A stretch of DNA of 64,000 nucleotides from the NCBI GenBank assembly GCA_046563655.1, contig CM102290.1:6262001-6326000 (forward strand), given 5' to 3'. Below, piece by piece: positions 547 to 38,350 of this stretch. The DNA comes from Yuukianura sp. NJ FZ-2021 (lineage: Eukaryota). Position 1 is the first letter of the stretch. Each line of letters begins with the position of its first letter. The notes under the pieces were generated by a model, which did no database searches, was not told where the DNA came from, and worked only from the letters and a program-made list of their open reading frames with translations. Position numbers and translations under genes: made by a program.

Positions 547-616
547 TTTTTTTTGTTTCTCCAAATTTGTTCGTTTTTCTCACCTCGAAAAAAGTCCAGA
601 TTCCGGGTTAGGTTTT

Positions 617-2358: not shown

Positions 2359-2443
2359 TATTCCCCCAATTTCTTCTCTTTCTTTTCTTCTTACAAAGCA
2401 CGGAAGTGAAAAGCACGGACCTCCCTCCAAAGTTGGCGAGCAG

Positions 2444-2790: not shown

Positions 2791-2816
2791 TTGCTTTCCA
2801 CATTTTTTTTTTTGAA

Positions 2817-3995: not shown

Positions 3996-4012
3996 TTTTT
4001 TTTCTTTTAAGC

Positions 4013-4372: not shown

Positions 4373-4522
4373 GATGTTGACGAGTCAAATGGTTGACTTG
4401 AAATGGAACTCTAGTTTATTCAAAAGAGTCCTTTTTCATAAATGTCCAACTCAATCGTTTCTTGACTGTTGTCCTCAAAACATTCTTTTCTCTTCTTTTT
4501 ATCCTCTCCTTCCCGCATAATA

Positions 4523-5488: not shown

Positions 5489-5506
5489 CTTGAAAGTTGG
5501 CTGGTT

Positions 5507-6040: not shown

Positions 6041-6050
6041 TAGTAGTAGT

Positions 6051-6725: not shown

Positions 6726-6819
6726 TTACAAGGGGGAAAAGAAAATTGGCTTTCACACTGTACAACAATCAAATTTAAACTAAAATCTTTATTTCAATTA
6801 ATTTGGCTTTTTGAATAAA

Positions 6820-9800: not shown

Positions 9801-11008
9801 TTTGATTTAGAGTCATTGGAAAACTTATACAATTCCAATCCACCGAATTTTGAAAGTTGATGTAACTTCGAGGATCAATTACGCGATACCAACGTGTAGT
9901 ACTATTTTTATATAATGGATTCAATTCAGCCAAAATTGCATATTTGAAACATAAAGCGTCCACATTTCTCACGTTCACAACACATCCTTTTCTAGCCAAG
10001 GCTTTTGGTGTGGGAATCCAACTACTTCCGTGTTGCATTTGATACACGGAAAATTTAAAAGATATCCATTTAAAACGGCTAACTCTCCAACCAGATCCCT
10101 TCCGAAGAAATGCAGCAATTGTGTCTCCAATTTTGTTTGACATTAGGCGAATAGCATTTCCAAACATTGATGGTTGAAGACAAATGTGAACAAATGAGCG
10201 AAAAGGAAAGTCTTCTACTTGATGTTGATTTGGATTATCACGCAGTTCACGTGTCATTTCAACTAAAGCTACACTGCTCACTAAATAGGCTCCAATTTCC
10301 GTATGAATTCTTCTCATCAAGTTTCGTAGCGTATTTGAGCAATGTAAAAATACACCAGTCACATCTACAAAAACATCTTGATTAAAGGTTACAGTATATT
10401 CACGAGTTAAACCCCCAAACGCAATCACTTCGTCAAAATTAACTTCATTTTGTCCAGCATTTGCTGACCCGCCACATTGATTTGTTGAAAAATTTTGATT
10501 GTATACTTCTGGATGAACATGAAATAAATGCTCGTCAAGGTGTCCTGGATATTCAAATCGAATTCCACATTGAACACATAGTCTTCTACTATAATTCCTC
10601 AACTCTTCCGCGTCACGAATTGTTTGATTCGTAGTATTTCTTGATTGAAAACTACTACTACTACTTGATCCAGCTTGATTTGGTCCACCATGAACTTGCT
10701 GCACATGATTAATAAAATCTCTTTCTCTTAGTCCTCTCAAATTACAAGTTTGACATCCAAATTCTCGTACTCCGCTACTACTACTTTCCAAACCAAATTC
10801 TTCCAACAGCTCACCTAATGACACAAAACAAAACCAAATTATGTTTTCTTATAATGTATTCTTTTTATTACGTTTTACCTGGAATTTCTACATCATGATG
10901 GTTAGTGTGAACGTGGTTTAAAAAATCTTCAGCACTTAAATTTTGCAAATTACACCTTCCGCAACAATAGAGTACTGCTGCTGCTGCTGCTGCTGAATTA
11001 GAAGACAT
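6820..11008 (-). CDS. Protein-primed family B DNA polymerase (pPolB), 2 exons (11008-10879, 10814-6820)
   Basis: Exo motifs DFEC and HNFRNYD. Pol motifs LDANLLY, K..GN.VFGK, TDTDS. EndoVII-like CxxC...DHCH.TG..RG..CNKCNL insert. A 64-nt GT-AG intron (10878-10815) supplies the ATG and a C2H2 finger (MSSNSAAAAAAVLYCCGRC...HVHTNH). Confidence 0.95.
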
Positions 11009-14943: not shown

Positions 14944-15175
14944 CGGAAAAAATTAGCGTGATAAGTTTAGAGTCAGTTTCACTCTCTCAGTTTCTATTGG
15001 CTGTCCGAAGTTTCTCTGTCGGATGCACCAATAGGAATATTTCAATGCGATTCATCGGACAAATACGAGTCTAGAGTATAAGTAGAGACTGTATGCATGA
15101 CTTTGTCCAATGCCAAAGTTCGGACTTCTGCTCCACTCCCGGCTCCGTGGGCGGGTATGCCGATGAAGGGTTGTT

Positions 15176-15255
15176 TGATGAGGATGATGAGCCACTTTCA
15201 AGCCCCACAAATCTCAAGTCGCCCCAGAACCGAATGACCACGAGTGTCAAAACGG
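15176..15255 (+). repeat. Left terminal inverted repeat of Polinton B
   Basis: TGATGAGGATGATGAGCCACTTTC...GAGTGTCAAAACGG is the exact reverse complement of 30546-30625. Confidence 0.95.
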
Positions 15256-16054
15256 AAAATGCACTTAAGAACAAAAGAGACATTATGCCTATCTGTCCAG
15301 TGGCTGTGTCACACATTGTGTCAGTTGTGTTATTTTGCCATCAAGGACATTTTTTCACTTGAGAAAAAAAGGCATAGCAATACACATAGGCCTTTGTGTG
15401 CTCTTTACCTCCTGTTCTTTCAGTCTTTGTGACAGAAAACATTTTGACATCTTAGTTCAGGAAGTTCAGCTTAACCAAAATGGGGAAATCTTTTCGCCAA
15501 ATTCGTCAGGAACGAAAATCGCGGGAACTGCTTGGAATAAAACATGTAAAATATATATCATTTTCTTTAATTTTTTTTGATTTCATGTTATGTTTTGAAT
15601 GTAAGCTAAGAAGTTATTTGTGTAATTTCTTTATTTTATAGTACTGTAAGGACACCACACGGCTACCAAGCCAGAGAGGGGCTGAAGTTCAACTCAATGG
15701 CGGGACCAAGGTACCATGACCTAACCCAAAAAGACTAACAATTTAACATATATAAATCCTACGTCGTGTCATGTCTCACAACCGCTGTTCCAAACCCGTT
15801 AGAATACGTGCGCGGGGTTTTGACTAAAAGCCTGCACGTTCATTTTTCCTTGATCTTCTATTTATGTTTGCATGAAAATGCAAAAAGTAATACGGCGCAT
15901 GCGCGGTAGAATAAAATGTCATGAAGTTAGTGTGTTTATGAGGCTACGTAACGTAGAAGAAATTATTTGCTATTCGTATTCCTCATGTAAACTATTTGCT
16001 TTTCGTGACTTTATTTTCGTTCATTCCTAGAAACTCAATAACATTTACCGCCGG

Positions 16055-16396
16055 ATGGGCACGGGGAAATCAGCACAGGGAGCCCAAAATTGGGTCATCA
16101 CGCAACATGAAATAGTAAGAACTCAGTTTGATGTGTTCATATCACAAAGGTTTAGGTTCATATTACTGACTTTTACTGAATTAGATTTGTTTTTCACTTG
16201 GCAGATAAAACCAGATGATATAATTAATCGTAGACGTCATAGGCGACGACTTGCAAGAGACCGTAAGCGGGACAAAAAAAATGATGAAGAAATGAAACGA
16301 ATTTTGGCAAAAACTGTGAATACAACAAACGGTGAACAATCTTCAACAAAATCTAAACCAAAAAATTCTCAAAAAAATAAAATTGCAGCTTCTTAA
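16055..16396 (+). CDS. Small highly basic protein, probably 2 exons (16055-16114, 16205-16396)
   Basis: The ORF contains an in-frame 90-nt GTAAGA...TTGGCAG intron-like segment. The product has an RRRHRRRLARDRKRDKK basic patch. Confidence 0.5.
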   Translation: MGTGKSAQGAQNWVITQHEIVRTQFDVFISQRFRFILLTFTELDLFFTWQIKPDDIINRRRHRRRLARDRKRDKKNDEEMKRILAKTVNTTNGEQSSTKSKPKNSQKNKIAAS

Positions 16397-16616
16397 CTAC
16401 CAAGAAGTGTTATATTAAAGCTAATATTCAAAAACAAAATTTCAACAACTTTCTACTCCTTGTTTACGAATTTCTAATATTGGAAAATCAAATTAAAGTG
16501 GAAATATTCAACAAAATCAAAGCGTAATTCAAAATTCAAAACGAAAAATCAAGTTAAGGTGAAACACATTGTATAATTTTATTGAAAAATTATTTGAATC
16601 AAATTTTAATTTGTGT

Positions 16617-18224
16617 TCATTGTGCCTCCATGTAGCACTCATGCGCTTTGTCGATGGCCTTCTTGAGGTTCGGAAGATACTGCATGTTGATGTTTATGCC
16701 TCTTCTCCCATCTACGACACCGTTCACCATGTGCCGTATCATCACATAATGTGCCCCGCGAAATTTGTGCCACTTGACATGGACATCGAGTCCAATGTGC
16801 ACGGACCCGCTCCGAATTTGCTTTCCCCTGGTATTATGATCGGCTGGAGCCAAGTCAAGAACCAAGTCCTAATTGAGAAATTAAAACTATCATTAGCCCA
16901 TTCGCAACTAAGTGCAAATTATAAAAGTAATATGTATCTTACGTCTTCATCATCCTCGTCTCCGTCCTCTTCGTCCTCTAATCCAGACCGCTTTCGTCCT
17001 TTCTTTTTAGGTGGTTCATAGGAAGACGATGCGTCCGAGTCAGTATAAATGTCTGTCTTCCGTTTCTGCAATGCTCTTGGAGCGCTCTATATCATATACA
17101 AAATCAAAGATTTACACTCAAGAAAGCTAACATAAAATCCCAGAAGTATTTAGGTTAGATTGTAGCTAAATTTACCTTTCTACCATGAGCTTTTTTCGGA
17201 GGGAGCATGCTTTTTACACCGACTGGAAGGTCAGGTAACGGCATCACATTTTGCCGCTTGAGCTTTGGTTTCTGAACCCCGTAGGTAATCTGGATATCAA
17301 AAGTAAACAAATTTTACGCCAGAAATCATTGCACAACCATTTATTACAAGCTTGTTTTGATTCACCTTTTCCTTCCCTTTTTTGTTCACATCAGTGAGAC
17401 TTTGCGACTTCCTTACAACGCTTGACGGGGTTTTCGGTCGCTGACCTGGTTTGGCTCTGACAGAAGGTCCTGCTTTTGACTTCAGACCAATTCCGGAACC
17501 TGCCTTCGTTTCATCAGCAGTTCGCTGCAAGAAACGAGCTTGGCGATAAACTTAAATATTATAAAGAGCATTTAGTATACTTTGAACAAAAATTACCTTT
17601 AGAAATTCGGGCTCTTTTCCAATTTGGCGAATTGCCAGTTCCTTAGAATTGCGTTTTTTAAGCGCAGAAACTAACTCATCTTCGGATGCTTCCGGATCTT
17701 CCTCGCCTTCTTCCTCGTCCTCGTTTTCGTCATCTACTTCGTCTTCCTCTGACTCTTCTTCGCCTTCTCCTTCGTCCTCATCCACAACAAACTCAGGATC
17801 CGAATCCTAATAATGGGAAAGTAATGATAATAACAATTGACAGATCTGATGAACCAATAGTTACATTTTACATTTAAAACTCATTTCAAAAAACTTTTTT
17901 TTAGACAACTTACCTCAACTCCTGCAGCGGCTGCCGACATTTTTTCCTTGACGGCTTCTTTAAATTGCTGGCTCCTACTTATGGGGTTTTTCTTGGAAAC
18001 CGATGCAATGGCCGCATCAGCCTTCTCCCCACTTTGAAACGACGTTTCATCCAAATCCACAATTTCCGGTTCGCCTTCTTCCTCTTTGTCAAATGTCGAA
18101 ACTAAAAACGCATTTTATCAAATATAATTAGAAATCATTTCAAATAATAGAATTAGAAATCATCAACAAAAAACAAGCTAAGTTAAAAATCCTTTTGATT
18201 ACCTTTCCGTAGCTTGTAACTCAT
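16617..18224 (-). CDS. Acidic/basic disordered protein with a C-terminal PC4 (ssDNA-binding) domain, 7 exons, ~362 aa
   Basis: Exons 18224-18203, 18101-17914, 17806-17597, 17524-17366, 17289-17176, 17086-16943 and 16868-16617 join in frame across GT-AG introns. The last exon, VHIGLDVHVKWHKFRGAHYVMIRH...GRRGININMQYLPNLKKAI, is PC4-like. Confidence 0.75.
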
Positions 18225-18384
18225 CTTGTAACTGCAACTCTGACACAAGGCTTTTGGTTGTTTGGTAAGTGTTGTTTGGTAGTTGTTGACTGTATCACTG
18301 ATAGTACTCGACTGAATCAAAATTTAACGGTTTTGAAACAATCTGAATCGTGTGAAAATCCAAAGTTAGGGCTTCGCTTCATGG

Positions 18385-18645
18385 GAAAATGCAATTTTTG
18401 AAAATTCTGAAGTTGCAATTTTGCTAATTTCTCTTAAGTTGGAATTCTGAAGTTGCAATTTTGCTGATTTCTCTAAAACTAAAATTTTGAAATTGCAATT
18501 TTGCATTTTATCTCTTAAGCTTTACACTTTGCACGTATTAGAATTTAATTCTACTTATCGTCACTAAAACCTCCCATCATTAAACACAAAAAGGAGTTAC
18601 ACTCTTTAAGGGACAAAAAGGACTTACACCCTTTAAGGGACGTAA
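18385..18645. promoter_or_regulatory. Repeat-containing divergent promoter region between the PC4 gene and pPolB
   Basis: About 4 degenerate copies of (TTCTGAAG)TTGCAATTTT(G) at ~40-bp spacing, plus AAAAGGA.TTACAC.CTTTAAGGGAC x2. Confidence 0.5.
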
Positions 18646-18875
18646 AGGCTCTTCATAACCTGTTTGTAAGCATTCTATTAATTCATTCCCAGTTAAAATT
18701 TTTTCGAAGGAAATATTATTAGTCCTTATTGATTGTTTTATTTTTTAAAATGGCAATGGTCGGGGCAATTTAAATACTGTCTCCCTGCCGACGCCATCTG
18801 ACGGTGGAAATAGGAATGAAAAAGGTTCCGAGCATTTCCGTTTGGAATTTAATTTGTCTTTTTTGTTTTTAGAAA

Positions 18876-21800
18876 ATGGAAGATATCCAACTTTCCACGC
18901 TGAGGTGCGAACTCTGTCTGAAAGTTTCAACTAACAAGCAACATTTTTTGGTGCATTTGTCAAAATGCCGGCGATCCAATGCGAGGCGCCTTAGCAGACC
19001 TCGAAAGCCTATTAACAAGTGCTTAGTTTGCTCAAAATCTTTTCACCGACACTTGGACCTGGAAAGGCATAGAGCTGCTAAGCATTCCAAGCTAATTCAT
19101 AAAAGTGCTGCAAGGATTTTAACCAGGAGAATTCAAAGTGGTGGCTCAATGACTCAAAGACGAAAGTTGGATATTCACCCATTCCAAAAAATTCAAGCTT
19201 TCAAAGGATACATCAGAACATATCGTCACAATTGCAAAAAACCAATTGAAAACTTGAATATGTACTTTTATAAGTTCAGCGATCAGATGCATAACATTAT
19301 TAATGAGTGCTTGAGGACCTTCAATTGTGTCAAGAGCCAAATTTCTGTGAAAGTTCAATTTCAACGCTTTCTCTGCAAATCAAAAGACGGCAATGATGTG
19401 TATGAATATCAGCAGAAAATGGTGAACTCGAACATGATTGTCATACTCAACAATCACCACAGCCTTAGCCGGTTTATGCAAATGTGTCTCACAAAGATTG
19501 AACATTCCATAAGCATCTTCGAAACATACGGTTCCGGGTGGCAATTTGGAAAAGTTTATGGATCTGACATACGAATTGCAAAGTTTAATGCTTTGACGGG
19601 AGGATCCTGGCGAAATTTGCCAAAGTACTTGCAACGTAAAAGAGCAACCATCAACATCAAAACCAAAGGAAATTTTTGCTTCAAATGGGCTTTTCTGGCG
19701 TCTGTACACAAAATCTCCAACAAAAAAAAAGCTTCAAGGCCGAATTCCTATCTGGAGCTAGAAAGTCTTTATGACTTCACTACGGTATCTTTCCCAGTTT
19801 CACTCCGGGCAATTCGCCAATTTGAACTAACTAACGGCGTTGCTGTGAATGTGTTTGGGCATGATAGTCTCCAAGGTTTGTATCCTTTGCAAATATCTGA
19901 GTTTAATTATACAGGTGCCCGCACTGCAAATTTGCTACTTTTGACCAACAAAAAAACAAATGCATCGCATTTTGTTGCAATTCGTGACATAGACAGACTC
20001 TTAGGGAAACAGAACTGCAGAAAACGTGCTTTGTGCTTTAATTGCCTTCAGAGAATAAAAATGTGTCCAAGCACATGCAGAAACTCAGCTTGTGATCGTC
20101 GTTGTTTGCTGAATTTACATCGCGTAGGCTGTGAGAAATTTGCGGCTAAAAAAGTTAAAATGCCAGACGACCAAGAAGAAATTTCATTTGAAAATTTTGC
20201 CAACCAAATGAAAGCTGGCTACGTTATGTATGCTGACTTGGAGTCGATCCTTCGACCTTTGCCGCCGCAGCATGACTACTCAACCACTGTGAAAGAAAAG
20301 CGGCACGTACCTTCTGGGTTTTCATATGCCTTAGTGAACTCGAATCAAGAACTAGTGACGTTTCGTGTCTATAGAGGAAAAGATGCGATTGAGGTATTTC
20401 TAGAAGAGTGCTTGGAAATTGGCAAAACTATTATGGAAATCTACGACATCAACGTACCTCTCAGAATGACGCAGGCAGACGAAATGGCCTACAGCAACGC
20501 AACGCACTGCCACATATGTGGTCACAGATTTGACAAGTTTGCTGAGAGATGTCGCGATCATGATCATTTAACCGGTACATTAGAAATTTTTTAAATAATT
20601 GTTTAATATTTTAACTAATTTCATGCTAAAGCGTTATGGAATGTTTTCAGGCTGTTTTCGAGGAGCGAGCCACCAAAGCTGCAATTTAAACTACAAACAA
20701 AAGAAAATCCTTCCTGTGGTTGTAAGAATACCATTAACAAATATTTTTTAACAATTCACTCCGATTTGTTCTAATCATTCTGATTGTTTCTAGATGCACA
20801 ACCTACGAGGGTACGACCATCATTTACTCATTAAAGGACTGAACAAGATCAGTCCAAAAAAGGTGACGGTGATTCCAACGAATACAGAAAAGTACATGTC
20901 TGTGACGATTGAATCTCTTCGGTTCATCGACAGTCTTCAGTTTATGAACTGCAGCCTATTTGAGCTTGTCCAGAATTTGAAGGACAAAGGAACTGATGGT
21001 TTCAAAATATTGAATGAAGTCTTTGGACCTAAGCTCGCTCCGTTGCTGACCCGGAAAGGGGTTTATCCATATGATTACATCGATTCATGGGATGTTTTTG
21101 AAGAGACTTCGTTGCCCCCGTTTGAATCATTCTTCAACACACTTACGAACACGAATATTTCAGCAGAAGACTATGACTTTGCGAACCATGTTTTTAAAGA
21201 GTTTGGTTTAAAGACGATCGGGGAGTACCATGACTTGTATGTCTTATCGGATGCACTGCTACTCGCTTGCGTCTTCGAAGAGTTTCGTAATATGGCTATG
21301 GATGATTTCAAACTAGATCCAGTACATTATTTCTCGCTGCCTGGGCTGGCATGGGATGCGGCGTTGAAGATGACTGGGATTCGGCTAGAGTTGCTAACCG
21401 ACCCTTCAATGTACACCTTCTTAGAACTAGGAATGAGAGGTATTATCAAGAACAAATAGGCGTAATACCAGTATTCATTGCATTTGTATTATAGGTGGAA
21501 TTTCCCAAATCTCTCATCGCTACGCAAAAGCAAATAATAAGTACTTGAAGTCCTTCCGCGGACATCCAGATGACAATGATCAGTCATACATTGTGCTTTG
21601 GGACATGCTAAATTTATACGGGTGGGCGATGGTTGGCATGCTACCTGTCAGCGACTTCATGTTTTTGGACCCAGGTACAACGTGCCCTATATCCATTAAT
21701 TACATGGTAATTATATCAGATATTTGTTTTCCAGAACTCATCCAGCAATTTGACGTTTTGAGTATTGACCCAGATGACGAGATTGGATACATCTTGGAGG

Positions 21801-23007
21801 TGGATGTTACATACCCTGGTAGGAAAATTTTATAACAAATATTGAATCGTTTCAAGTGATTGTAATTCACGGTCTACTTACAGCTGAACTACACGATCAA
21901 CATCAGTGTTACCCTTTGGCGGTTGAACGGGCACACGTCAGCAATGAAATGCTTAGCCCTTTTCAAAAAAAGATGCTTTCTCAACTTCCAATTAAATATA
22001 TGGATCATCAGCAGAAGCTAGTTTCGCATTTTTTACCTCACACAAACTACATATGTCTCGCCAGCAATTTGCAGTTTTATGTCCAACGAGGACTTCAGGT
22101 GCAGAAAATACACAAGATACTTGCCTTCAAGCAGATGGCCTGGTTGAAGCCTTATGTCGAGTTCAATAGTACCAAACGGAGTTGTGCGAAGAATGAGTTC
22201 GAGCGGATGTTCTACAAGCTCTGTGTGAATGCTGTTTTCGGCAAAGGAATGGAGTCCGTAAGGAAGAGGATGAATGTAAGAGTGGTCAACGACAAACGAA
22301 CAGCGCTAAGGCTGATTGCAAGAAGCCAGTTTCTGTCACATGACATATTGGGGAAGAACTTAGCTTGCTTCAACATGCAAAAGCCTTGTGTTACACTCAA
22401 CAAGGCAATTTACACCGGATTTACAGTTCTGGAATTAAGCAAGTTACATATGTACAAGTTTCACTACAACTACGTGAAGAAAAAGTGGGGTGAACGTGCA
22501 AAGCTTCTCATGACCGATACCGATAGCCTGGCGTACCACATTACAACGACTGATGTGTATGAAGATATTTCTATGGACTTGCAGCATTTCGACACAAGCG
22601 TGCTTTCACCCGCTGACCCATTGTACAGTACTCACAACAAAGGAGTTATTGGGAAAATGAAAGATGAAGCTAAAGGAACAATTATTTCAAAATTTGCTGG
22701 AGTCGGGCCGAAGTCTTATTGCTTTCTTGGAGATGATACGCAAACGCCGACTTACAAAAAAATGGCAATGAAAGGCGTACCCCAAAGAATTCAGAAAAGT
22801 TCAATTTCGTTTCATATGATGAAGAATGTTTTATTTAAGCAAAAAGTTTTTGCATGCACTAGCAAGTCAATGCGTTCATATAAACATAAGGTGTATAACA
22901 TAAAGAGTACGAGAGCTGCACTGCATGGATTTGACTCAAAGAGGTACATTTTGAAAGATGGAATTTCTACATTACCCTTTGGTCATTACAAAATTAATCA
23001 GGAGTAA
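18876..23007 (+). CDS. Protein-primed family B DNA polymerase (pPolB), 6 exons
   Basis: Introns 20575-20650, 20722-20793, 21440-21494, 21675-21734 and 21819-21883 are all GT-AG. Splicing restores DHDHLTG|CFRG, ILPVV|MHNLRGYD, GMRG|GISQ, DP|ELI and YP|AELHDQH, collinear with Polinton A pPolB. N-terminal C2H2 fingers, WDMLNLYG, K..VNAVFGK, TDTDS. Confidence 0.93.
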
Positions 23008-23031
23008 ATAAATCAAAATACTGCAACACAT

Positions 23032-23728
23032 TTATATGTAGACTTTCAAAATTAATCGGATCTCCGTTCGGCAAATCGGGCAATGAGATTGAGTAGTACA
23101 ACAATCTTGACAGGTTGATAGATGGCAGCACGGTGCAAACATGTAGGTCGTGGTTTGAGATAGGCAAATTTTGCATGTGAACATGCTTTTGAGGTTGTTG
23201 AACTCGGTTTCTAAAATTGATTACAAACAAACTGTATACACCAACAGAACAAACGAGAAGTAACTTTTGTATATGAATTAAAGTTTCAATGCACACCTGG
23301 ATCAGAATCAAGCTTTCCGGTTTGAGCTATCCCTGCATCTGCCTGGTTATTCTGAAATTGCATTATTCGAGATTTACAACAACTTTAGAAACTTATAAGT
23401 CCATCCTTACATTTTCTTGAACCTGGCGTCCATTTATATAATGATATGCACAATCAGGGTTATATATTTGGTGTTCCAGTGATGGATTATCCAATTGATT
23501 CCACGTAGATAAGCATAGCCCGCAATAAAAGCAGATAGAACAATCCTTATGTTCTGTGAAAAAGAAGCCTGCCCTTGCCATGTTCACAAATGGTGGTAAT
23601 TTGTCACGCATTGCAGTTGGATAGCTAGAAATTCGTTTTTCGAGCTGAACGTATTCTTTAAAGGTAGGTCCTCCATCATTTGCTGCAATCACAGGCATTG
23701 TGAGAACCTCAATTGTTTCGGAAAGCAT
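23032..23728 (-). CDS. iap: Inhibitor of apoptosis (single BIR + C-terminal RING), 3 exons (23728-23411, 23351-23297, 23210-23032), ~183 aa
   Basis: BIR: RISSY...MARAGFF...CFYC-x16-H-x6-C. Exon 3, missed by the ORF track, reads CKICLSQTTTYMFAPCCHLSTCQDCCTTQSHCPICRTEIRLILKVYI*, an IAP-type RING. Splice phases are compatible. Confidence 0.9.
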
Positions 23729-23838
23729 GATGCACTACACACAAAGATCTTTGAAAGTTAGTTGGTATCAAAAGAACGGTCACTTAATGTGTAGACTTCT
23801 GATGCAAAACTGGTACTGGCTGAATGGTTTCACTAGCA

Positions 23839-24699
23839 TTAGAAAAACTTCCAGGCGGATCCCTTAGCAATTGGTGTTTGGTAATCCTCCCCTGATGGAT
23901 TGTCCCCTTGATTGAGATCATCATCGTTACTTTCGTCATTTTGATCATCTTCCATGTCCTCTTCTTCTTGTTCCTCCTCCTGTTCTTCTTCCTCGCCTTC
24001 TTCTAGTGGTTGGCCAACCATTGGAGTATTTTGAGCAAGTAGCGCTACCGTTGTCAAGTTTAGTTTGTTGCGAATATGAATTCCGAGTAATTCTTTTGGT
24101 ATATGTACTTTCTTCAAAATGTAGATGAAAGTACGTATCCCCTTTGGGGGAGTGACTTTCGCCGGCGGCTTGAGAACGTATGACAACAAATCAATAATAT
24201 TGGCGCCATTCCTAGGTACACCCTTAAAGAATACTTGACCCGACTCATCCCAGGAAATGTCGTTAAACGCAGATGTTGAAAGAATCTGCATTATTTTTAA
24301 ACCTGTCAACTGGTACTTTGTCGGTAGGAATTTGGCCAAATGAGTGTTGTAAAGTGCTTGGTCTACGGTTGTCTCTGCATCATGCTTCATGGTTCCTGTT
24401 GTCGTAGAAGTTGAATGTTTAGATGTCATAGGTAGAGGATCCGTTTTAGAAACTTCTACACGAAGAGGAGTTTCCGTCAAGGCTGAAAAGCTTGCGTGCA
24501 ATCCCTTCACCATACTATTGAATAAGGCTAACTTGATGTCATCCGAAATGGAATTCCAATGCAGAATATTTGTAGCTGCTGCTTGTTTCCTGTTAAACAG
24601 GTGAACTGAAGAAGATTTGTGTAACAACTGAGGAGCCCTTTGGATGGCAATAAGTTTCTCGTACTCTAGATGCGGTATTAACTTCATTTTTTTGGACAT
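23839..24699 (-). CDS. Conserved Polinton protein of unknown function
   Basis: Homolog of 2817-3995; acidic C-terminal tract; start overlaps the upstream stop (TAATG). Confidence 0.8.
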   Translation of the reverse strand: MSKKMKLIPHLEYEKLIAIQRAPQLLHKSSSVHLFNRKQAAATNILHWNSISDDIKLALFNSMVKGLHASFSALTETPLRVEVSKTDPLPMTSKHSTSTTTGTMKHDAETTVDQALYNTHLAKFLPTKYQLTGLKIMQILSTSAFNDISWDESGQVFFKGVPRNGANIIDLLSYVLKPPAKVTPPKGIRTFIYILKKVHIPKELLGIHIRNKLNLTTVALLAQNTPMVGQPLEEGEEEEQEEEQEEEDMEDDQNDESNDDDLNQGDNPSGEDYQTPIAKGSAWKFF

Positions 24700-25046
24700 T
24701 ATAAACCGACAAGATGAGTTAACGCATTCGCTGCGAGTCCGCCAAGTAGCGACAACGCTGGGGTTACCAACAACGGAAGAAATCCTCCCTTTTGTATAAG
24801 GAATTGTTTCTTTTTTTTGAGTGATAACTTTTTTGCGAGATTCCTGATACCAAACTTATGGCGTCGTAGTTTGTGTTTGTGGTTGTTGCTCAAAGGTACA
24901 TTACCTATCAAAGTATTCAGTGCAATTTCTGACAATGCGTCAATGTTGTCCTTTGAGGCTTTCTTTATTAGTTTCTTTCGACGGAGAGCTTTGCACCTCG
25001 TCACCTCTTCCAAGAACGTCTTGTTTCTAACTAATCGCTTTGTCAT
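24699..25046 (-). CDS. Small basic conserved Polinton protein (QKGG-FLPLL tail)
   Basis: Homolog of 4013-4372. Confidence 0.85.
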   Translation of the reverse strand: MTKRLVRNKTFLEEVTRCKALRRKKLIKKASKDNIDALSEIALNTLIGNVPLSNNHKHKLRRHKFGIRNLAKKLSLKKKKQFLIQKGGFLPLLVTPALSLLGGLAANALTHLVGL

Positions 25047-25060
25047 TCTAAGACAATCAG

Positions 25061-25772
25061 CTAGCTCGGTAAGTAAACGATGTGGTCTTCTTTCGGCAGG
25101 ATTCCCGACTGTATTCGTAGATTGTCGTGACAGCTAGGGTGCAAATTCAGAAATAAGTAGGAATACGGTTGTCGGGTTGCTTCCTCGTATGCGTTTAGAA
25201 TAGCACTTGGCTTCCTTGGGTTGAGCTGCCTACTGAGGTACATAACTTGAGAAGGGAATGAGGGTGTTTTGCAGATTGTCATGTAATGTGTATTGAGACG
25301 AATATCCCTAGCATATTTCCCTTGTGGCAGCAGATTTTGAGACAGAAAGATGACGGATATTGACCTGGAATTCGAAAACGTTTTGTAAATTCTATTCAAT
25401 GTAAGAGAAGCTATGTTTCACATACCTATGATGAACACCGCAAGTGAAAAGTTCTTGAATTGATTTATCTTTTAATGAATCCGCCATTTGGTCATCGATG
25501 ATTAACAGCGTATTTCTTGCATAAACTTCGTCCAACTTTATTCCTTCCAAACACCTAACTCTAGAATCCATTGACCTCATGACGTCATAGCCGCTTTGAT
25601 ATACCTTATAGAATACAATTACATCGTCGATCCTAGGTTGCACCATCATATCCAGGTTTTGAATAATCTTGCAAACGAAGGTTGTTTTTCCGGACATTGT
25701 ACCACCGGCAACGATGAATGTGAATGGATGTCTGAGTTGAATTTGATGGAAATCGTACGTATTGCTCTCCAT
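25061..25772 (-). CDS. DNA-packaging ATPase, 2 exons (25772-25426, 25364-25061)
   Basis: Walker A GGTMSGKT, Walker B LIIDD. A 61-nt GTATGT...TTCCAG intron restores GVHHR|SISVIFLSQN. Confidence 0.92.
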
Positions 25773-26518
25773 TAAGCTGATATCTTCCTAAAATGCAGAG
25801 TTAAAGTCACCTGTCCTTTGTCAATCGGCAACTCCTCGCCAAACTCGTCACACAGTACAATTGAGATGATGTCAAACTCGCTCCTTGAAATCGGAAGGTA
25901 AAACGGTTGCGGAAAAGTTTGAGTGACTGCTTGTCCTTCGTTTCCAATTATGTTTACCATACGAAGTAGAGGTACAAGAGAGGATCCAACGATTTGAGAC
26001 TCTATTATGTCGCAGTATAGAAACATGTGATATCGCCCACCGAGTATATCCGGTGGAGAATCGGCTATGAAGTAGGTATTTTGCTGATTTGCATTAAATT
26101 CAAGCGTACCATTATATCCCAAAATGTACGAGAGTTTCTCACTTATTTCGATACTAAATCCGGCTTCTACTTCCAGGCTCACGCGGCACTTTGTTTCGTA
26201 GTACTTCAAGTTGGAAGGGACGCTGTGCTTTATAAAAGATAAGTTGACCATGTGAACTAAATGCTCTACGGTACTGTAATGAAGTAAAGGAAGCTCTATA
26301 TTCCCGGCAGTCTTCGCCCCATTATACTCAATGAGATTATCTTTCTCAGCTCCGGTTAGAGTTTTTATGGAGCACACATAAGTCAACTCAGTAAGCCCGA
26401 CCTCGTATAAAGAAGGGTCAAGTTCTATTTTGGATGGAAGTTTAATCCTGTAGTTACTCGTTCGGTTGTCAGAAAAATAACGTGAGCCGTTCGACGGTAA
26501 TGTAATATAGAAGCCCAT
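25772..26518 (-). CDS. Minor capsid protein (PX/penton-like)
   Basis: FYITLPSN..YFSDN..SNYRIKLP...YEVGLTEL; MFLYCDII..QIVG....PLLR; TLHFR. Confidence 0.92.
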   Translation of the reverse strand: MGFYITLPSNGSRYFSDNRTSNYRIKLPSKIELDPSLYEVGLTELTYVCSIKTLTGAEKDNLIEYNGAKTAGNIELPLLHYSTVEHLVHMVNLSFIKHSVPSNLKYYETKCRVSLEVEAGFSIEISEKLSYILGYNGTLEFNANQQNTYFIADSPPDILGGRYHMFLYCDIIESQIVGSSLVPLLRMVNIIGNEGQAVTQTFPQPFYLPISRSEFDIISIVLCDEFGEELPIDKGQVTLTLHFRKISA

Positions 26519-26519
26519 T

Positions 26520-27449
26520 TTATTCGTTTCGACTTATCTTGCTGAGCTCTTGACTGTAATAGATCCCAGAAATTTGTTCACCGGAAAGATCTTTGACACG
26601 GTACGTCACTGGAATAGAATTGATGACTTCACAGACTTCGAAAATTTCGTTTGTAAAAGCAGGCCAATAACCCTTGCCAAATATGTGTTTCGTTTTATCA
26701 AGACGTACGCGGTCATATAGTTTGAGAATGGCTTTTGGTTTAGATTTGGAATACAAGTCCTTATAAGATTCCAACCAGACGTCCATTTCATTGTATTTAT
26801 TAACGTCGCATGGCGCCACTTTCGTCCGAGAATGTATCTTGCTGTTATAGGACTTCAATAGAAAGGGCAAGGCCTCAATGTATCTCTTTTGACCGGTTTC
26901 AGTAAGATGTCTGGAAATGGCTGTGCATATTGTTCGGTTAAACCTTTCAATAACACATGAGCCGAAGTCAGAGAAGTTGTGGTACATTAATATGCCGAGA
27001 GACTTCGCCCACTTCCGGAATGCAGCTGACCAAAATTCTCCACCTTGATCACATTCTAGCGTAACGGGTCGTCCCTTCCCGGAAGAAATGATTTTCTTGA
27101 ACGTTTGAATAACTTCACTAGTTTTTTTAGATTTCATGGGCACAGCAAATGCATACTTTGACAAGACATCGATCGCCGTTAAAAGACAAGAGTAGCCATC
27201 GTTCTCTTCAGTGTATTTCGGCAAGAACACAATATCAGCCTGCCAAAGATAGTTTAATGCTGGCGATATTACTCGTCTTCTACGAAATCTACACCTTCGT
27301 CCTTTATGACGTGTGTATGAATCTTGACTTTGTAAAAAATTCAATGCTGCAGACTGAGAAATGCCATGCAACTTGCTCAAATGTTTGTTTCCACACAAAT
27401 AACTCGATCTTCCAATCCGCTTGTATGACTTTGCGATGTCAGATTTCAT
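26520..27449 (-). CDS. Retroviral-like DDE integrase
   Basis: WQADIVF...DVLSKYAF...ECDQGGEF...IERFNRT. First ATG at 27449. Confidence 0.95.
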   Translation of the reverse strand: MKSDIAKSYKRIGRSSYLCGNKHLSKLHGISQSAALNFLQSQDSYTRHKGRRCRFRRRRVISPALNYLWQADIVFLPKYTEENDGYSCLLTAIDVLSKYAFAVPMKSKKTSEVIQTFKKIISSGKGRPVTLECDQGGEFWSAAFRKWAKSLGILMYHNFSDFGSCVIERFNRTICTAISRHLTETGQKRYIEALPFLLKSYNSKIHSRTKVAPCDVNKYNEMDVWLESYKDLYSKSKPKAILKLYDRVRLDKTKHIFGKGYWPAFTNEIFEVCEVINSIPVTYRVKDLSGEQISGIYYSQELSKISRNE

Positions 27450-27527
27450 ATTCTTTAATAAGATAATAAATTTGTAGAGTATCAAATTGGATTACATAAA
27501 ATTTTATATGGTTGTAGGAAATTAAAC

Positions 27528-28076
27528 TTACATATTGAGGAGAACTTCTAAAATTTCACAACACTGAACTATTTTAAGCAATTCTTGAGGTTCACTCGTC
27601 GAAGTTATTCTACTATCGTGCTGCAAATTAATTGCTACAAAGTCTCTTACAATGGCATCGTTTATATCTAGATCAAAATCGTTAAACTTGCTCAGAATTT
27701 TTTCGAATGATTCTCCCCTGATTCTGTGAAACAAATAGTACAGTGCAAACTGGCCGCAAGCGTCACTCTTCTCTGGTTGTACTCTAAGACTGCTCATTCT
27801 AATGACATCAGCCTTTGAGTAAAGAAAATTTACAAAGCTGGGAGTGTAAAACTCAATTGGCATTGCACAGCTGTCAAAAAATTCAACCTCTCTACCTCCG
27901 CTGTTTTTGAACATACTGATCCAATGCATTCCTGGTTCCTTTGAAGATTGGGAATTAACAACGATGGCGAACTGATCCGATGTAACAGCCTTCAATTTGT
28001 CAGAGGGTAGAACTGCGGTTTGATATGATTTGTTGAGGCTCCTATTCAAAATCTCCAAGATCTCGGTAGTGTTCAT
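27528..28076 (-). CDS. Adenain-like cysteine maturation protease
   Basis: Catalytic H (GMHW), D (FFDS), Q and C (QPEKSDACGQFALYYL). Confidence 0.93.
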   Translation of the reverse strand: MNTTEILEILNRSLNKSYQTAVLPSDKLKAVTSDQFAIVVNSQSSKEPGMHWISMFKNSGGREVEFFDSCAMPIEFYTPSFVNFLYSKADVIRMSSLRVQPEKSDACGQFALYYLFHRIRGESFEKILSKFNDFDLDINDAIVRDFVAINLQHDSRITSTSEPQELLKIVQCCEILEVLLNM

Positions 28077-29374
28077 TGTGCAACGACTGCTTGCCGGTAC
28101 TTGTCAATCTCCAAGACGCCTTGTTGCTCAGACAGTATGACACAATGGACTGATTTTTCTAAAGCAGTACCAAACTGAACTTCAATCTTCACACTCCCAG
28201 ACTTCTCCAAATGCAGCAACGCATCGTTCCCAGTGGGCTGAAGAATGTCAAATGTAAACAGTGCATTGTTCTCTTTATAGTCATCACGTGCAAAAGATAG
28301 TCCCACGTCATGCCCCGCTATTCCTGTGCTTGTGAATAGGAGATAGTATGGCAAAAGGCATTCGTCGTTTGCAAAATCCAGAGATAACGGTCTTATTGGA
28401 AGAGACACATTGTTGACTGAAATAGAAATGGTCTTGATGTTGTAATTATGGAAACGAAAAGGATTTGAATTGACGTCTCCATTGAATGCCAAGCTGTCCA
28501 CAAACCCGATTATAAGCCGGCTTGGTACAGTATTTGCAAAAAGATTTTCCTCTAGAGCAGATGAATTTCCTTGAGCAATCGTAAAATACTTTACATCAGT
28601 TGCCTTAAACGGGTATTGAGCGATTTCGCCTTTTTCTAGAAGTCTTTGATGAGCCAAGATGATGCTAGGAAATGGCAGTTGTTTTCGGATGTAATAAGTT
28701 GCTGACAAGAACTTTATTACACCGTCGTCACCTTTTGTTTTTGAGAAAAGAGCAAATGCATCAGAAGCTCTGGTTAAACAAATGCGAACGTTGACATCAT
28801 TTAATATATAGCGATGTTGATTTGCCAGGTTAAATCTCAACTTGTCGATTAGCTCAACAGGTTTCGATTCACTAATGAAGGCTTTTCGCTTTTCCCATCC
28901 CGAATTTGTTGAATCAGCAATTCCACCCAGTGTGTCTTCGTAATACAAAGCGCAACCCCCTTGTGAGCTCTTGTAATCTTTTCCGTAGCACAGCAATGTT
29001 TCAATGTATGCACGATAAGCGTAGCCGTTATTGCTTGTGGAAACAAGTTTTTCGTTGAAATAAATATCGAGCTGTGAGAAGAGTGCGTGCATGAAGAGGT
29101 TCACAGTACCAACGGTTGACTCTTTACCCAGGTTAGTTCCAGCCTTCTGGGTTACTTTAAGTTTCACCCGTAGGAAGCTGTCATTCAAATCAAGATAATG
29201 GTTGCTGTTTCCCGGAATTTTGAATTCGATTTTGTTTGACGAATCCTGAACATTGACAACTGGCTGATACTCTTCGTACATGCTGTAGTCACAGGTAGTA
29301 TCTGTTGCTGGAATTGAAAATAAGTCAACTTCTCCCCGAATAGCTGGTTTAGACCGAGAATGTAGTAGCGACAT
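28073..29374 (-). CDS. Major capsid protein (PY/hexon-like)
   Basis: 433 aa; DLFSIP.T...YQP...IEFKIPG...YLDL, NLFMHALFSQ, YAYRAYIETLL, PSRLIIGFV...AFNG...NPF.F motifs. Confidence 0.95.
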   Translation of the reverse strand: MSLLHSRSKPAIRGEVDLFSIPATDTTCDYSMYEEYQPVVNVQDSSNKIEFKIPGNSNHYLDLNDSFLRVKLKVTQKAGTNLGKESTVGTVNLFMHALFSQLDIYFNEKLVSTSNNGYAYRAYIETLLCYGKDYKSSQGGCALYYEDTLGGIADSTNSGWEKRKAFISESKPVELIDKLRFNLANQHRYILNDVNVRICLTRASDAFALFSKTKGDDGVIKFLSATYYIRKQLPFPSIILAHQRLLEKGEIAQYPFKATDVKYFTIAQGNSSALEENLFANTVPSRLIIGFVDSLAFNGDVNSNPFRFHNYNIKTISISVNNVSLPIRPLSLDFANDECLLPYYLLFTSTGIAGHDVGLSFARDDYKENNALFTFDILQPTGNDALLHLEKSGSVKIEVQFGTALEKSVHCVILSEQQGVLEIDKYRQAVVAQ

Positions 29375-29862
29375 TATGCAAATATATCCAATTTGGTTCT
29401 CTTTGCAGTCTTTGTTGACTTCGTTGAAGCCTTTCTCTTTTTCGATGCCTTCGGTTTCTTAGGTTTTCTTGACGCTTTGTTTCCTACTTTGGATGGCTTC
29501 CGTTTCGTGTATGTACGCTTCCGTTTAACTCCCACACCTTTCCCTGTTTGAGATCCAACTGCTGATTTCAAAAGATCGGCACCAACGTTTTTCAAAAATC
29601 CGAGGCTGTTTTCCTTCAGAGCGTGCTTTACTGACTGACGTCCTTTCGCAATCCCACTCACAGTTTTTACTGCTGCTTCCTTTGCATGGGGCATAATCCA
29701 CTTCATGATTATAGGCAAAGCGTATTTTGCAATTCCTCCTAGGATGGAACCAATGCCTCCTCCTCTCTGTCGTACCCCATGAAACACAGGAATTCCATGG
29801 CCAATTTGGTCCCTCAAAGTATTGTAGTAGTGTTCGTGATTAAACACGTACCTCTGCCGCAT
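29374..29862 (-). CDS. Basic core-like protein
   Basis: QIGHG, QRGGGIGSILG and QTGKG motifs, amphipathic middle, K/R-rich tail ending DIFA; homolog of 617-1312. Confidence 0.88.
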   Translation of the reverse strand: MRQRYVFNHEHYYNTLRDQIGHGIPVFHGVRQRGGGIGSILGGIAKYALPIIMKWIMPHAKEAAVKTVSGIAKGRQSVKHALKENSLGFLKNVGADLLKSAVGSQTGKGVGVKRKRTYTKRKPSKVGNKASRKPKKPKASKKRKASTKSTKTAKRTKLDIFA

Positions 29863-30097
29863 TGTAGATAGATGTTTTCAGTTTGACTTAAGAATGATCA
29901 CTGAGGGCTGAATTTCGAACTATGATTAATATGACTATTAGTCTACAATAGAATAACCGGAAAGGAATTCAAGCCCAGCTTTTATGATATAAACGGTTTC
30001 TAATGTTAAAAACGTTTATGTTTCAAACATTGCTTTACATGAAGATTTTGATTATTTCAGAGTATATATTGAATTCACTTTGAATTAAACAATGGTA

Positions 30098-30422
30098 AGT
30101 GGGTTAGCGCAATCGATAAGGTGGTGGCATCAAATCGAGGGAGCCTGGGGTCGATTCCCATTAGCAGTAATAAAAAAAATTAAAAAAAAAAGTTAGGTTG
30201 CTACTCTATTTAAACTCTTCGTATAGTCAAGCATTCTTCTCTCACGGATGCCTCGACTTGTTGCTCTCTGTTCTTTGAGTCACTGTTCCATTTCCACCAT
30301 ACTGGACAAGGTGGAATGAGACAATGACTTAAAGAGCAGAGAGCAACAAGTTGAGGCATCCGTGAGAGAAGAATGCTTGATTATGCGAAGAGTTTAAATA
30401 GAGTAGCAACCTAACTTTTTTT
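30098..30422 (+). ncRNA. Candidate Pol III transcript: tRNA-like leader plus ~113-bp hairpin
   Basis: A-box-like TAGCGCAATCG (30105-30115) and B-box/T-arm-like TGGG-GTCGATT-CCCA (30146-30160). Inverted arms 30185-30298 and 30310-30422, ending in T7 with no earlier T4 run. Confidence 0.6.
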
Positions 30423-30454
30423 AAAATTTAAATGGAATATGTACTTAATTTTTT

Positions 30455-30562
30455 CACGAGTGACAAAACGGCAAGTGCCGTTTTGACACTCTTTGTCACT
30501 TGGTCACTTTGTCAAAAATGACAATGAGTGTCAGAACGGCACTTGCCGTTTTGACACTCGTG
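30455..30562. repeat. Subterminal nested palindrome (two flip/flop hairpins)
   Basis: GAGTGACAAAACGGCA-AG-TGCCGTTTTGACACTC and GAGTGTCAGAACGGCA-CT-TGCCGTTTTGACACTC in inverted arrangement, overlapping the inner TIR edge. Confidence 0.85.
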
Positions 30563-30625
30563 GTCATTCGGTTCTGGGGCGACTTGAGATTTGTGGGGCT
30601 TGAAAGTGGCTCATCATCCTCATCA
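30546..30625 (-). repeat. Right terminal inverted repeat of Polinton B
   Basis: Exact reverse complement of 15176-15255, followed by the TSD GTTGTT. Confidence 0.95.
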
Positions 30626-30653
30626 GTTGTTTTCGTTATGCGGTTAGTTCGAA

Positions 30654-33329: not shown

Positions 33330-33760
33330 AAGGAAGGCCCCACCTGAGACCCACCACACAGCGGAGACTACAACCACTACTACAATAACGAAGAGGACTC
33401 TGCCAAACTCCACTCGACTCCAGTAAGAGGACGAAGACCACACCGAAGACCTCAGCTACTGGAAGACAGCCCCACCAACACTCAACGGAGACAGCACCAG
33501 ACTACTGCACCCACCGAAGAAGACTTACGGCACAACTCCACTCGGCTCCAGCAGAGGACTTGAAGCCCCACTACTGGACCCTACACCACCACTGAAGGAA
33601 GGCTCCACCTCAACACTCAGCGGAGACTTCAACTACTTCAGCCACCAAAGAAGACGCCAGCAGACCTCCACTCGGCTCCAGCAGAGGACTTGAAGCCCCA
33701 CTACTGGACCCTACGCCACAACTGAAGGAAGGCCCCACCTTAACACTCACTGCTGGAAGA
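33330..33760 (+). repeat. Degenerate ~129-bp tandem repeat, about 3 copies
   Basis: CTCCACTCG(G/A)CTCCAG...GAGGAC recurs at 33408, 33536 and 33666. Confidence 0.8.
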
Positions 33761-33784
33761 CAGCTTCAACCACCGACTGCCGCC

Positions 33785-34630
33785 ATGGATGAACAGGAGA
33801 CCTTCCCGAAGTATAGCCGATGGACGGTTGGAGGAGTACATCGCGCCTTGATTGACAGCTCAAAGAAGAACCACGAACGACTCAACGACTTCAACACCAT
33901 CTACCGTCAGGAGACATCATCCCCACCAGCATTTAACTCGCCGTCACTACCGGATCGTGACTGCAGCGTAGTTCCAGAAGCCTCCTCTACCCTCAACACT
34001 ACTGCAGCGAAGGGCCCACCTGACTCACCGTCGCGCAAGGGATGCTGCAACTGGATGTCTCCTCGGGGCTTCTCTGGAGCTGGTTCAGGAAGTGCGACAC
34101 AACAATCTAAAGGCAGCTCTTCATTCCTCAAGCGGCCAAAGAAGAAGATGAAGCACGCTCAATATGGATTATGCAGATGTAACCACTTTGAAAACGACAA
34201 CATCAGTCAAATGGAGCAGTATCCGGGCCCAAAGGAACTTCCAATTGGAATGGGATGCAACCGCTCATCTACACTGTTGAAGGGCGACCGGACGGACAAA
34301 TTTCATCTACGACACACGGACTTCGTCACTTACTCAAAGAGTCCTGCTCAAATTGTACAACACCGAGATATCATTTTCTTCATCGCCTCGAAGCGGCCGT
34401 ATGGAATCCTCGACCCAGCTGCTTTCTTCGTCGTCGTCTCCAATGCTGGAGGAGACAATATCATGGTTCAACTCAAGATGGACAAGGATAACCCTCAGTC
34501 CAGGATCTTTTGTTGTTTCCATCCCAACGCGCCCGGAGTGTACGATGTGTCGGTAGTACTGGTCAATCAGCATATCGACGGAAGTCCGTTCCCTATCGAA
34601 GTGTCGATTGATCCTATGGTACCACTGTAA
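33785..34630 (+). CDS. Intronless ORF with a C-terminal filamin-type Ig repeat
   Basis: FHPNAPGVYDVSVVLVNQHIDGSPFPIEV matches the filamin/ABP280 repeat end (P..PG.Y.V.V....HI.GSPF.V). Confidence 0.65.
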   Translation: MDEQETFPKYSRWTVGGVHRALIDSSKKNHERLNDFNTIYRQETSSPPAFNSPSLPDRDCSVVPEASSTLNTTAAKGPPDSPSRKGCCNWMSPRGFSGAGSGSATQQSKGSSSFLKRPKKKMKHAQYGLCRCNHFENDNISQMEQYPGPKELPIGMGCNRSSTLLKGDRTDKFHLRHTDFVTYSKSPAQIVQHRDIIFFIASKRPYGILDPAAFFVVVSNAGGDNIMVQLKMDKDNPQSRIFCCFHPNAPGVYDVSVVLVNQHIDGSPFPIEVSIDPMVPL

Positions 34631-38250: not shown

Positions 38251-38350
38251 NNNNNNNNNNNNNNNNNNNNNNNNNNNNNNNNNNNNNNNNNNNNNNNNNN
38301 NNNNNNNNNNNNNNNNNNNNNNNNNNNNNNNNNNNNNNNNNNNNNNNNNN
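38251..38350. other. Assembly gap (100 N)
   Basis: Run of n. Confidence 1.

Follow-up and report, generated by a model that had tools for sequence, protein, structure and literature searches.

In vertebrates, intact Mavericks, also called Polintons, are defined by eight intronless open reading frames (ORFs), in agreement with Kapitonov and Jurka, according to the available text of that report (PMC8097293). Likewise, a large survey relied on prokaryotic gene calling since endogenous viruses "do not contain introns", as stated in the accessible part of the study (PMC10120064). The literature searches turned up no account of Polinton core genes with conserved spliceosomal introns, although older founding papers or Repbase may contain one. 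Here, a stretch of 64,000 nts from Yuukianura sp. NJ FZ-2021 (assembly GCA_046563655.1, contig CM102290.1, positions 6,262,001 to 6,326,000 of the forward strand, hereafter the window) was analyzed. Positions 15176-30625 hold a Polinton/Maverick of 15,450 bp with 12 genes, every one of them open. Five of the 12 genes of this intact element are predicted to be interrupted by short U2-type GT-AG introns, whose sites appear to be inherited within one Polinton sub-lineage, a reading to which we give a probability of about 0.86.

All 15 GT-AG introns proposed in the initial annotation were located (Table 1): five in the gene of the protein-primed family B DNA polymerase (pPolB), six in a gene encoding a PC4-like protein, two in an inhibitor of apoptosis (IAP) gene, one in the packaging ATPase gene and one in a small basic gene. 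They measure 55 to 107 nts (55 to 110 as first given), and all 15 begin with GT, end in YAG and carry a purine at position +3. Their removal yields five open coding sequences (CDSs) of 83, 362, 1267, 183 and 216 residues with zero internal stops and, over all genes, 11.6 kb of CDS are free of stops and frameshifts. The GC content of the introns is 0.280 against 0.422 for the exons, and none of 10000 resampled sets of exon segments was as low. The claim that every intron restores the frame fails for the small basic intron and pPolB intron 4, both of which keep the frame and contain no stop. For the IAP introns and pPolB introns 1, 2 and 4, consensus or homology served to select among several intron solutions. 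In the gap between the BIR and RING domains of the IAP, 0 single-intron but 44 two-intron frame-compatible GT-AG solutions were counted, hence frame restoration alone is weak and the weight lies on homology, composition and conservation in relatives.

Homology is provided by intronless counterparts. A tblastn comparison showed that six intronless full-length pPolBs are collinear with the locus, which has five extra segments at exactly the intron positions. Alignments of the spliced pPolB extend over about 1085-1207 residues for 12 out of 12 homologs. Junctions 1, 3 and 5 are ungapped within 6 residues in all 12 homologs and junction 2 in 11 of them; for junction 4, located in a variable region, this is the case in 6 out of 12. 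Similarly, no gap falls at the ATPase junction in the alignment with the intronless ATPase of a second Polinton located upstream in the window. Removal of the introns thus gives a frame collinear with intronless homologs for six of the 15 (the five of pPolB and that of the ATPase). Beyond these, PC4 introns 1 and 2 are backed by a related locus, L001, while the other seven rest on open frames.

Conservation was followed in relatives of the polymerase. A search with pPolB exon 1 recovered the ORFs P0271 to P0275. In P0271, P0272, P0273 and P0275 (44-54% identical), homology ends exactly after the motif DH[DN]HLTG, which is pPolB site 1; in P0271 it resumes 17 residues further on and is lost a second time at site 2. 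P0274 (41% identical) is read without interruption. In three metagenomic loci, L001 to L003 (51-55% identical), sites 1-3 carry GT-AG introns of 50-65 nts in nine out of nine tests. Both loci that cover site 4 (L001 and L003) have an interruption there, and the donor of site 5 is found at the equivalent place in L001. The 15 more distant loci covering sites 1-3 all read through without stops, and 14 of them also cover sites 4-5 and read through there, L006 being the one that does not cover these two. In addition, L001 carries a PC4-like gene on the opposite strand from pPolB, with the same 22-nt phase-1 first exon, equivalents of introns 1 and 2, and an exon 2 that is 59% identical to that of the window over 32 aligned residues. 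The divergent arrangement is therefore kept in another source. At least seven distinct members of the intron-bearing sub-lineage were recognized, the window included, and the predicted introns are an inherited trait of this one sub-lineage. Since the neighboring Polinton has an uninterrupted pPolB and ATPase, intron richness would belong to the focal lineage and not to the host. No relative was found among the viral contigs scanned with the pPolB exon-1 alignment.

Two of the loci examined deserve a separate mention for the region next to their pPolB. The region upstream of pPolB in L002 (L002:1-906) consists of short tandem repeats with a recurring "ISQLDGTTDF..KFR"-like peptide in several frames, and no PC4-like gene was found in it; these may be subterminal repeats of the L002 element. 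In the distant relative L008, an acidic ORF of 276 residues, divergent from its pPolB, was considered as an intronless PC4 counterpart and rejected, as it shows neither BLASTP similarity to exon 7 nor a Pfam match to PC4.

The family is also present in four coded public DNA runs from two studies, from 99+% to under 90% likeness. In run X1, 226 contigs were found, of which 71, 47, 67 and 41 fall at 99+, 95-99, 90-95 and under 90% likeness, respectively. A contig of the second study crossing pPolB introns 3-5 shows 18 substitutions and no gap, and another one across 22637-28538 shows 78 substitutions and a single gap. Of the 13 joints listed, not one takes out an intron. Among the 40 of 924 substitutions listed, 25 are exonic and 19 of these affect third codon positions (P=1.6e-5); for the PC4-like gene alone, the figure is 10 out of 14 listed substitutions. 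Among the 12 of 37 indels listed, the frame-breaking ones are found, bar one, in non-coding DNA, in the small basic intron (a 1-nt deletion in other copies) and in PC4 intron 2 (a 2-nt insertion in another copy), while the listed indels in pPolB sum to 21 nts.

Several observations weigh against the presence of inherited spliceosomal introns at all 15 sites. Splicing itself is a prediction from DNA. PC4 introns 3-6 have the frame, consensus splice sites and codon-position bias as their sole grounds, and the IAP coordinates are the best pick among the 44 two-intron solutions. The small basic intron and pPolB intron 4 could be retained, as the ORF would stay open. Not every position is fixed, since the fifth pPolB intron of L003 lies about 7 codons downstream (L003:1332-1545) and its fourth at the same site, which possibly reflects intron sliding, or loss and regain. 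L001 also has frame disruptions outside the intron sites, implying that some relatives are decaying. Finally, one contig carries a +1 indel in the last exon of the small basic gene, for which no homolog was found, and the codon-position count comes from a selected subset (the 40 substitutions and 12 indels listed).

The distribution of the predicted introns is uneven. As claimed initially, the genes of the major capsid protein (MCP), penton, protease, integrase and core protein are intron-free, and the same is true of p115 and p338, all of them being single ATG-started ORFs. The small basic gene and pPolB are on the + strand, and the PC4-like gene is transcribed divergently from pPolB on the - strand. 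A long co-directional series on the - strand runs from 29862 down to 23032 and encodes the core protein, MCP, protease, integrase, penton, ATPase, p115, a 286-aa protein (p338) and the IAP. From core through p338, the successive stop-to-start gaps are -1, -4, +78, +1, -1, +15 and -1 nts, the +15 gap separating the ATPase stop from the p115 start. In this eight-gene series (23839-29862, - strand), five of the seven junctions overlap by 1 or 4 nts or leave 1 nt. At the other end, pPolB and the IAP gene converge with ends 24 nts apart (23005-23034), so that transcripts from the two strands must overlap in their 3′ untranslated regions.

This uneven distribution had been proposed to mirror early and late expression: introns would mark early, host-like spliced genes and the capsid block would be a late unspliced unit, by analogy with the adenovirus program. 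We regard this as a tentative and rather unlikely explanation. The five morphogenesis genes hold one of the 15 introns and 14 lie outside them (binomial P=0.024), and most of the intronless genes are grouped in a single co-directional block whose stop and start codons abut or overlap, a layout that points to another mode of expression. Among MCP relatives, the closest (44-50% identical) are likewise full-length single ORFs. However, an intron is present in the packaging ATPase gene, although this morphogenesis gene lies within the packed block, and absent from the integrase, p115 and p338. At the level of genes, the contrast (an intron in one of five morphogenesis genes against four of the seven others) gives a Fisher p of 0.29. 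Furthermore, no promoter, polyadenylation or RNA evidence sets the units apart, polyadenylation-like hexamers being strewn throughout the element and too scattered to define transcription units. The accessory genes may also merely keep or attract introns as captured cargo, as reported for nematode Mavericks in the portion of the source that was available (10.1101/2022.07.12.499685). Alternatively, then, the bias could arise from accessory genes comparable to this nematode cargo, together with a single episode of intron gain by pPolB and the ATPase in this lineage.

An adaptive role of the introns, which an element copied from DNA to DNA could afford, appears less probable still. They would make the replication, anti-apoptosis and cofactor genes host-like, with export and expression dependent on splicing. 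It is similarly doubtful, though conceivable, that they allow evasion of a silencing of intronless foreign transcripts analogous to that by the human silencing hub (HUSH) in vertebrates, with the capsid block following a separate late mode. If this were true, intron content would encode a temporal and immune-evasion program in a Polinton.

Three explanations compete with that of inherited spliceosomal introns in a mobile element. The least improbable, though still very unlikely, is that these are host-domesticated Polinton genes and not a mobile virus, and that the introns were gained as in ordinary host genes. According to PMC2836005, domesticated transposase genes, such as the Gin genes derived from Ginger1, typically gain introns, and the same insertion with its flank was found in a run of the second study, so this copy may be fixed. 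However, a complete set of capsid, protease, ATPase and integrase genes lies between intact terminal inverted repeats (TIRs) with a target-site duplication (TSD), the many contigs at graded likeness point to a multi-copy family, and L001 retains the divergent PC4-pPolB arrangement in another source.

Decay is even harder to sustain. A dead Polinton broken by random insertions and frameshifts would be suggested by the first appearance of pPolB, which forms at least four ORFs in different frames and shows no polymerase domain at the default Pfam threshold; moreover, most vertebrate Mavericks are degraded and the "introns" called there by Genewise were taken as insertions, according to the available text of PMC8097293. 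In contrast, the disruptions are all within the 15 AT-rich segments bounded by GT and AG, the CDS outside them is free of stops and frameshifts over its 11.6 kb, the same sites are interrupted in relatives merely 51-55% identical, the differences between copies favor third codon positions, and the TIRs and TSD are intact. The initial proposal of splicing rather than decay is therefore strongly supported at the DNA level, by AT-rich segments that intronless homologs lack and that recur at the same sites in these relatives.

An equally remote prospect, that the introns are recent secondary insertions gained after integration (introner- or MITE-like transposons, the latter being miniature inverted-repeat transposable elements, or self-splicing introns), finds precedents in the introners of Polinton-like proviruses of dinoflagellates and the group I introns of some Polinton-like viruses (available parts of PMC11957031 and PMC12220804, respectively) but is contradicted by an all-against-all blastn in the window, in which the 15 introns share just chance matches of 8-12 nts, each matches only itself and none are copies of one or few repeat families, by an Rfam scan that found no group I, group II or other intron family at E<=0.1, by their length of 55-107 nts, far below the size of self-splicing introns, and by positions common to divergent relatives, which imply that the introns predate this insertion.

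If the introns are spliceosomal and inherited, the intron-bearing genes would be transcribed in the nucleus by the host RNA polymerase II and the introns removed by the host spliceosome. The element would be copied from DNA to DNA by its own polymerase in a protein-primed reaction, with no RNA intermediate. Introns would therefore never be lost by copying, unlike in retroelements, and could persist over roughly 50% protein divergence. In this scheme, the PC4-like protein would most likely be the single-strand DNA-binding protein or transcription cofactor of the element, and a block of host apoptosis would be the most likely role of the IAP. The element may be active, as the sequence fits such a state (12 open genes, intact TIRs and TSD, copies at graded divergence and third-position bias).

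Structurally, 15176-30625 is an intact Polinton/Maverick of the polintovirus type and carries Polinton hallmarks. A perfect TSD had been reported, and a 6-bp GTTGTT is indeed present on both flanks. The TIRs had been called identical, which is correct for the terminal 80 nts but not for the whole 87-nt repeat, whose arms match at 85 of 87 positions and differ at positions 81 and 84. An empty site, which would appear as a joint of 15175 to 30626, was not found among the listed joints and loose ends of the public DNA runs. The right subterminal non-coding region contains, besides the long hairpin of Table 1, a second hairpin with 47-nt arms at 30455-30562. Contig depth over this region is several-fold above that of most of the element, which suggests that the hairpins are an inserted, MITE-like palindromic repeat. 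In an Rfam scan (E<=0.1), they gave only sub-threshold matches to microRNA precursors, at 30226-30566.

Table 1. Features of the focal Polinton and its upstream neighbor, numbered by position in the window; a slash in the intron motifs separates exon from intron.
Feature	Position	Strand	Details
Upstream Polinton, MCP fragment	1-579	-	runs off window start
Upstream Polinton, rve integrase	4466-5488	+	
Upstream Polinton, ATPase	6051-6725	-	uninterrupted
Upstream Polinton, pPolB	6820-10848	-	uninterrupted 1342-aa ORF with Endonuclease_7 domain
Left TSD	15170-15175	.	GTTGTT
Left TIR	15176-15262	+	87 nt
Small basic gene	16055-16396	+	exons 16055-16114, 16205-16396; 83 aa
Small basic intron	16115-16204	+	90 nt, GTAAGA..GGCAG; in frame, no stop
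PC4-like gene	16617-18224	-	7 exons, 362 aa
PC4-like exons	18224-18203, 18101-17914, 17806-17597, 17524-17366, 17289-17176, 17086-16943, 16868-16617	-	
PC4 intron 1	18102-18202	-	101 nt, AAG/GTAATC..TTTTTAG, phase 1
PC4 intron 2	17807-17913	-	107 nt, GAG/GTAAGT..TTATTAG
PC4 intron 3	17525-17596	-	72 nt, AAG/GTAATT..TTGCAG
PC4 intron 4	17290-17365	-	76 nt, AAG/GTGAAT..ATCCAG
PC4 intron 5	17087-17175	-	89 nt, AAG/GTAAAT..GATATAG
PC4 intron 6	16869-16942	-	74 nt, GAC/GTAAGA..CAATTAG
pPolB	18876-23007	+	6 exons, 1267 aa
pPolB intron 1	20575-20650	+	76 nt, phase 1, after ..DHDHLTG
pPolB intron 2	20722-20793	+	72 nt, GTAAGA..TTCTAG, two in-frame stops
pPolB intron 3	21440-21494	+	55 nt; sole GT-AG solution
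pPolB intron 4	21675-21734	+	60 nt, in frame, stop-free; 20-residue insert vs homologs
pPolB intron 5	21819-21883	+	65 nt; sole GT-AG solution
IAP gene	23032-23728	-	exons 23728-23411, 23351-23297, 23210-23032; 183 aa
IAP intron 1	23352-23410	-	59 nt, AAT/GTAAGG..TTTCAG; best of several solutions
IAP intron 2	23211-23296	-	86 nt, CAG/GTGTGC..TTTTAG; best of several solutions
p338 (286-aa protein) gene	23839-24699	-	acidic tail; no intron
p115 (115-aa basic protein) gene	24699-25046	-	no intron
FtsK/A32-like packaging ATPase	25061-25772	-	exons 25772-25426, 25364-25061; 216 aa; Walker A GGTMSGKT
ATPase intron	25365-25425	-	61 nt, GTATGT..TTCCAG, phase 2
Putative penton/minor capsid gene	25772-26518	-	248 aa; no intron
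Retroviral-type (rve) integrase	26520-27449	-	309 aa; no intron
Adenain/Ulp1-like cysteine protease	27528-28076	-	182 aa; no intron
Double jelly-roll MCP	28073-29374	-	433 aa; no intron
Lysine-rich "core" protein gene	29374-29862	-	162 aa; no intron
Long hairpin	30185-30422	.	108-nt arms; right subterminal non-coding region
Right TIR	30539-30625	-	87 nt
Right TSD	30626-30631	.	GTTGTT

Among the replication genes, the spliced pPolB aligns end to end with the 12 full-length homologs, some of them bearing the Pfam domain DNA_pol_B_2, and has a C2H2-like zinc-finger region at its N-terminus. Of 1935 candidates, 853 are relatives at E<=0.001 (best 1.5e-95); many are annotated with C2H2 or Endonuclease_7 domains, and those with a named source are from molluscs, a coral and a spider. 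When read ORF by ORF, no Pfam family is found at E<=0.01 and DNA_pol_B_2 reaches E=0.016 on one exon, whereas the uninterrupted pPolB of the neighboring Polinton does pass the Pfam threshold. Exon splitting thus hides the focal pPolB from domain scans. The integrase is recognized by Pfam PF00665 (E=9.9e-17, 61.5 bits for a cut-off of 32.6).

In the morphogenesis module, the MCP has 7894 homologs, and residues 1-430 of its 433 align with a homolog of 438 residues. Its AlphaFold2 (AF2) model has a mean predicted local distance difference test (pLDDT) score of 92.8 and retrieves with Foldseek the MCPs of Singapore grouper iridovirus (SGIV), Paramecium bursaria chlorella virus 1 (PBCV-1), Sputnik and mavirus, with E-values from 3.5e-16 to about 1e-12. 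The ATPase matches Pfam Pox_A32 with E=8.8e-5 and 22.5 bits, just short of the 22.8-bit cut-off, and is 35% identical over 203 residues to the ATPase of the neighboring Polinton. The protease has weak matches to Peptidase_C5 in Pfam (E=0.011, which does not reach the cut-off) and to S273R of African swine fever virus, ASFV, in the PDB (E=0.02), the stretches around GxHW and CG being aligned with S273R. The putative penton gene adjoins the other capsid genes, and its product has Atlas feature matches of 0.98 with unnamed viral and cnidarian clusters.

The IAP has a BIR domain (Pfam, E=1.1e-15) and a C-terminal C3HC4 RING (zf-C3HC4_3, E=3.1e-10), whose assignment to one protein hinges on the two predicted introns. 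The PC4-like protein is acidic in its N-terminal part and basic in the middle, and exon 7 encodes a PC4/Sub1-like domain at its C-terminus. For this domain, the leads are weak but concordant: Pfam PF02229 matches with E=0.0028 and 17.6 bits, below the 25-bit cut-off; a PC4 cluster ranks second in Atlas at 0.88; and an AF2 single-sequence model, with a pLDDT of only 59.9, has strands followed by a C-terminal helix and gives PC4/Sub1 structures for all of the top 10 Foldseek matches, albeit weakly (E=0.11-0.23, TM-score of about 0.4-0.5). Exon 7 found nothing in a word-based protein search, and a PDB sequence search returned chance-level rows only. The p338 protein has weak similarity to an ORF of the neighboring Polinton. 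The small basic gene itself is the least certain part of the gene set.

The upstream Polinton (window 1-10848, about 1-10.9 kb) differs from the focal element, and its intron-free pPolB is 32% identical to the focal one. Downstream of the focal element, two host-type ORFs are present at 33596-34630 and 36783-38207, one encoding a filamin-repeat protein and the other a matrixin of 474 residues (matrix metalloproteinase, MMP, E=8.6e-48) with a sub-threshold hemopexin match, in keeping with an animal host. They are followed by an assembly gap of 100 N at 38251-38350 and by a long satellite array (38645-64000), whose repeat unit measures about 155 bp and which takes up the final 25 kb of the window and has a higher-order period of 388 bp at 52.6-55.2 kb.

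The chief significance of the locus would be an annotation blind spot for Polinton-like elements. Because the exons of the polymerase fall one by one below Pfam thresholds and "intact" is defined as intronless, a whole sub-lineage with a six-exon polymerase would be scored as degraded by ORF-based surveys built on an intron-free premise. The element would also be a concrete case of a nuclear Polinton spliced by its host, as predicted here, and would add PC4-like and IAP genes to the Polinton accessory repertoire, for which literature searches gave only papers with unrelated-looking titles.

Adenoviruses are nuclear double-stranded DNA viruses with a protein-primed family B polymerase, a double jelly-roll capsid and an adenain protease, and rely heavily on host splicing. 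Adenoviral splicing mostly joins leaders to ORFs and does not interrupt the polymerase CDS five times. The focal element resembles them in its polymerase, capsid and weakly supported protease modules but has, in addition, an integrase and TIRs with a TSD. With animal Polintons/Mavericks it shares the 6-bp TSD, the TIRs, a length of about 15 kb, the replication and morphogenesis modules and the genes for pPolB, rve integrase, double jelly-roll MCP and ATPase, together with a weakly supported protease and a putative penton; it differs from them by its additional PC4-like and IAP genes. Unlike the intact vertebrate Mavericks, intronless in the available text of PMC8097293, it has five predicted introns in pPolB and one in the ATPase gene.

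Other mobile elements have retained introns as well. Ginger1 cut-and-paste DNA transposons can keep one to four canonical GT-AG introns in their transposase gene but are single-gene elements without capsid genes or polymerase, as far as the available text of PMC2836005 goes. Spliceosomal-type introns are also found in the Maverick-Polinton-like proviruses of dinoflagellates where, according to the accessible part of PMC11957031, they are copies of mobile introners, mostly gained after integration; in contrast, the focal introns are mutually unrelated and appear to be inherited at fixed sites. Finally, nematode Mavericks carry along accessory or cargo genes with spliceosomal introns, and the available text describes their core genes as intronless and the introns as restricted to the cargo region (10.1101/2022.07.12.499685). 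The focal element differs from them in that core replication and packaging genes would themselves be interrupted, at sites conserved across about 50% divergence.

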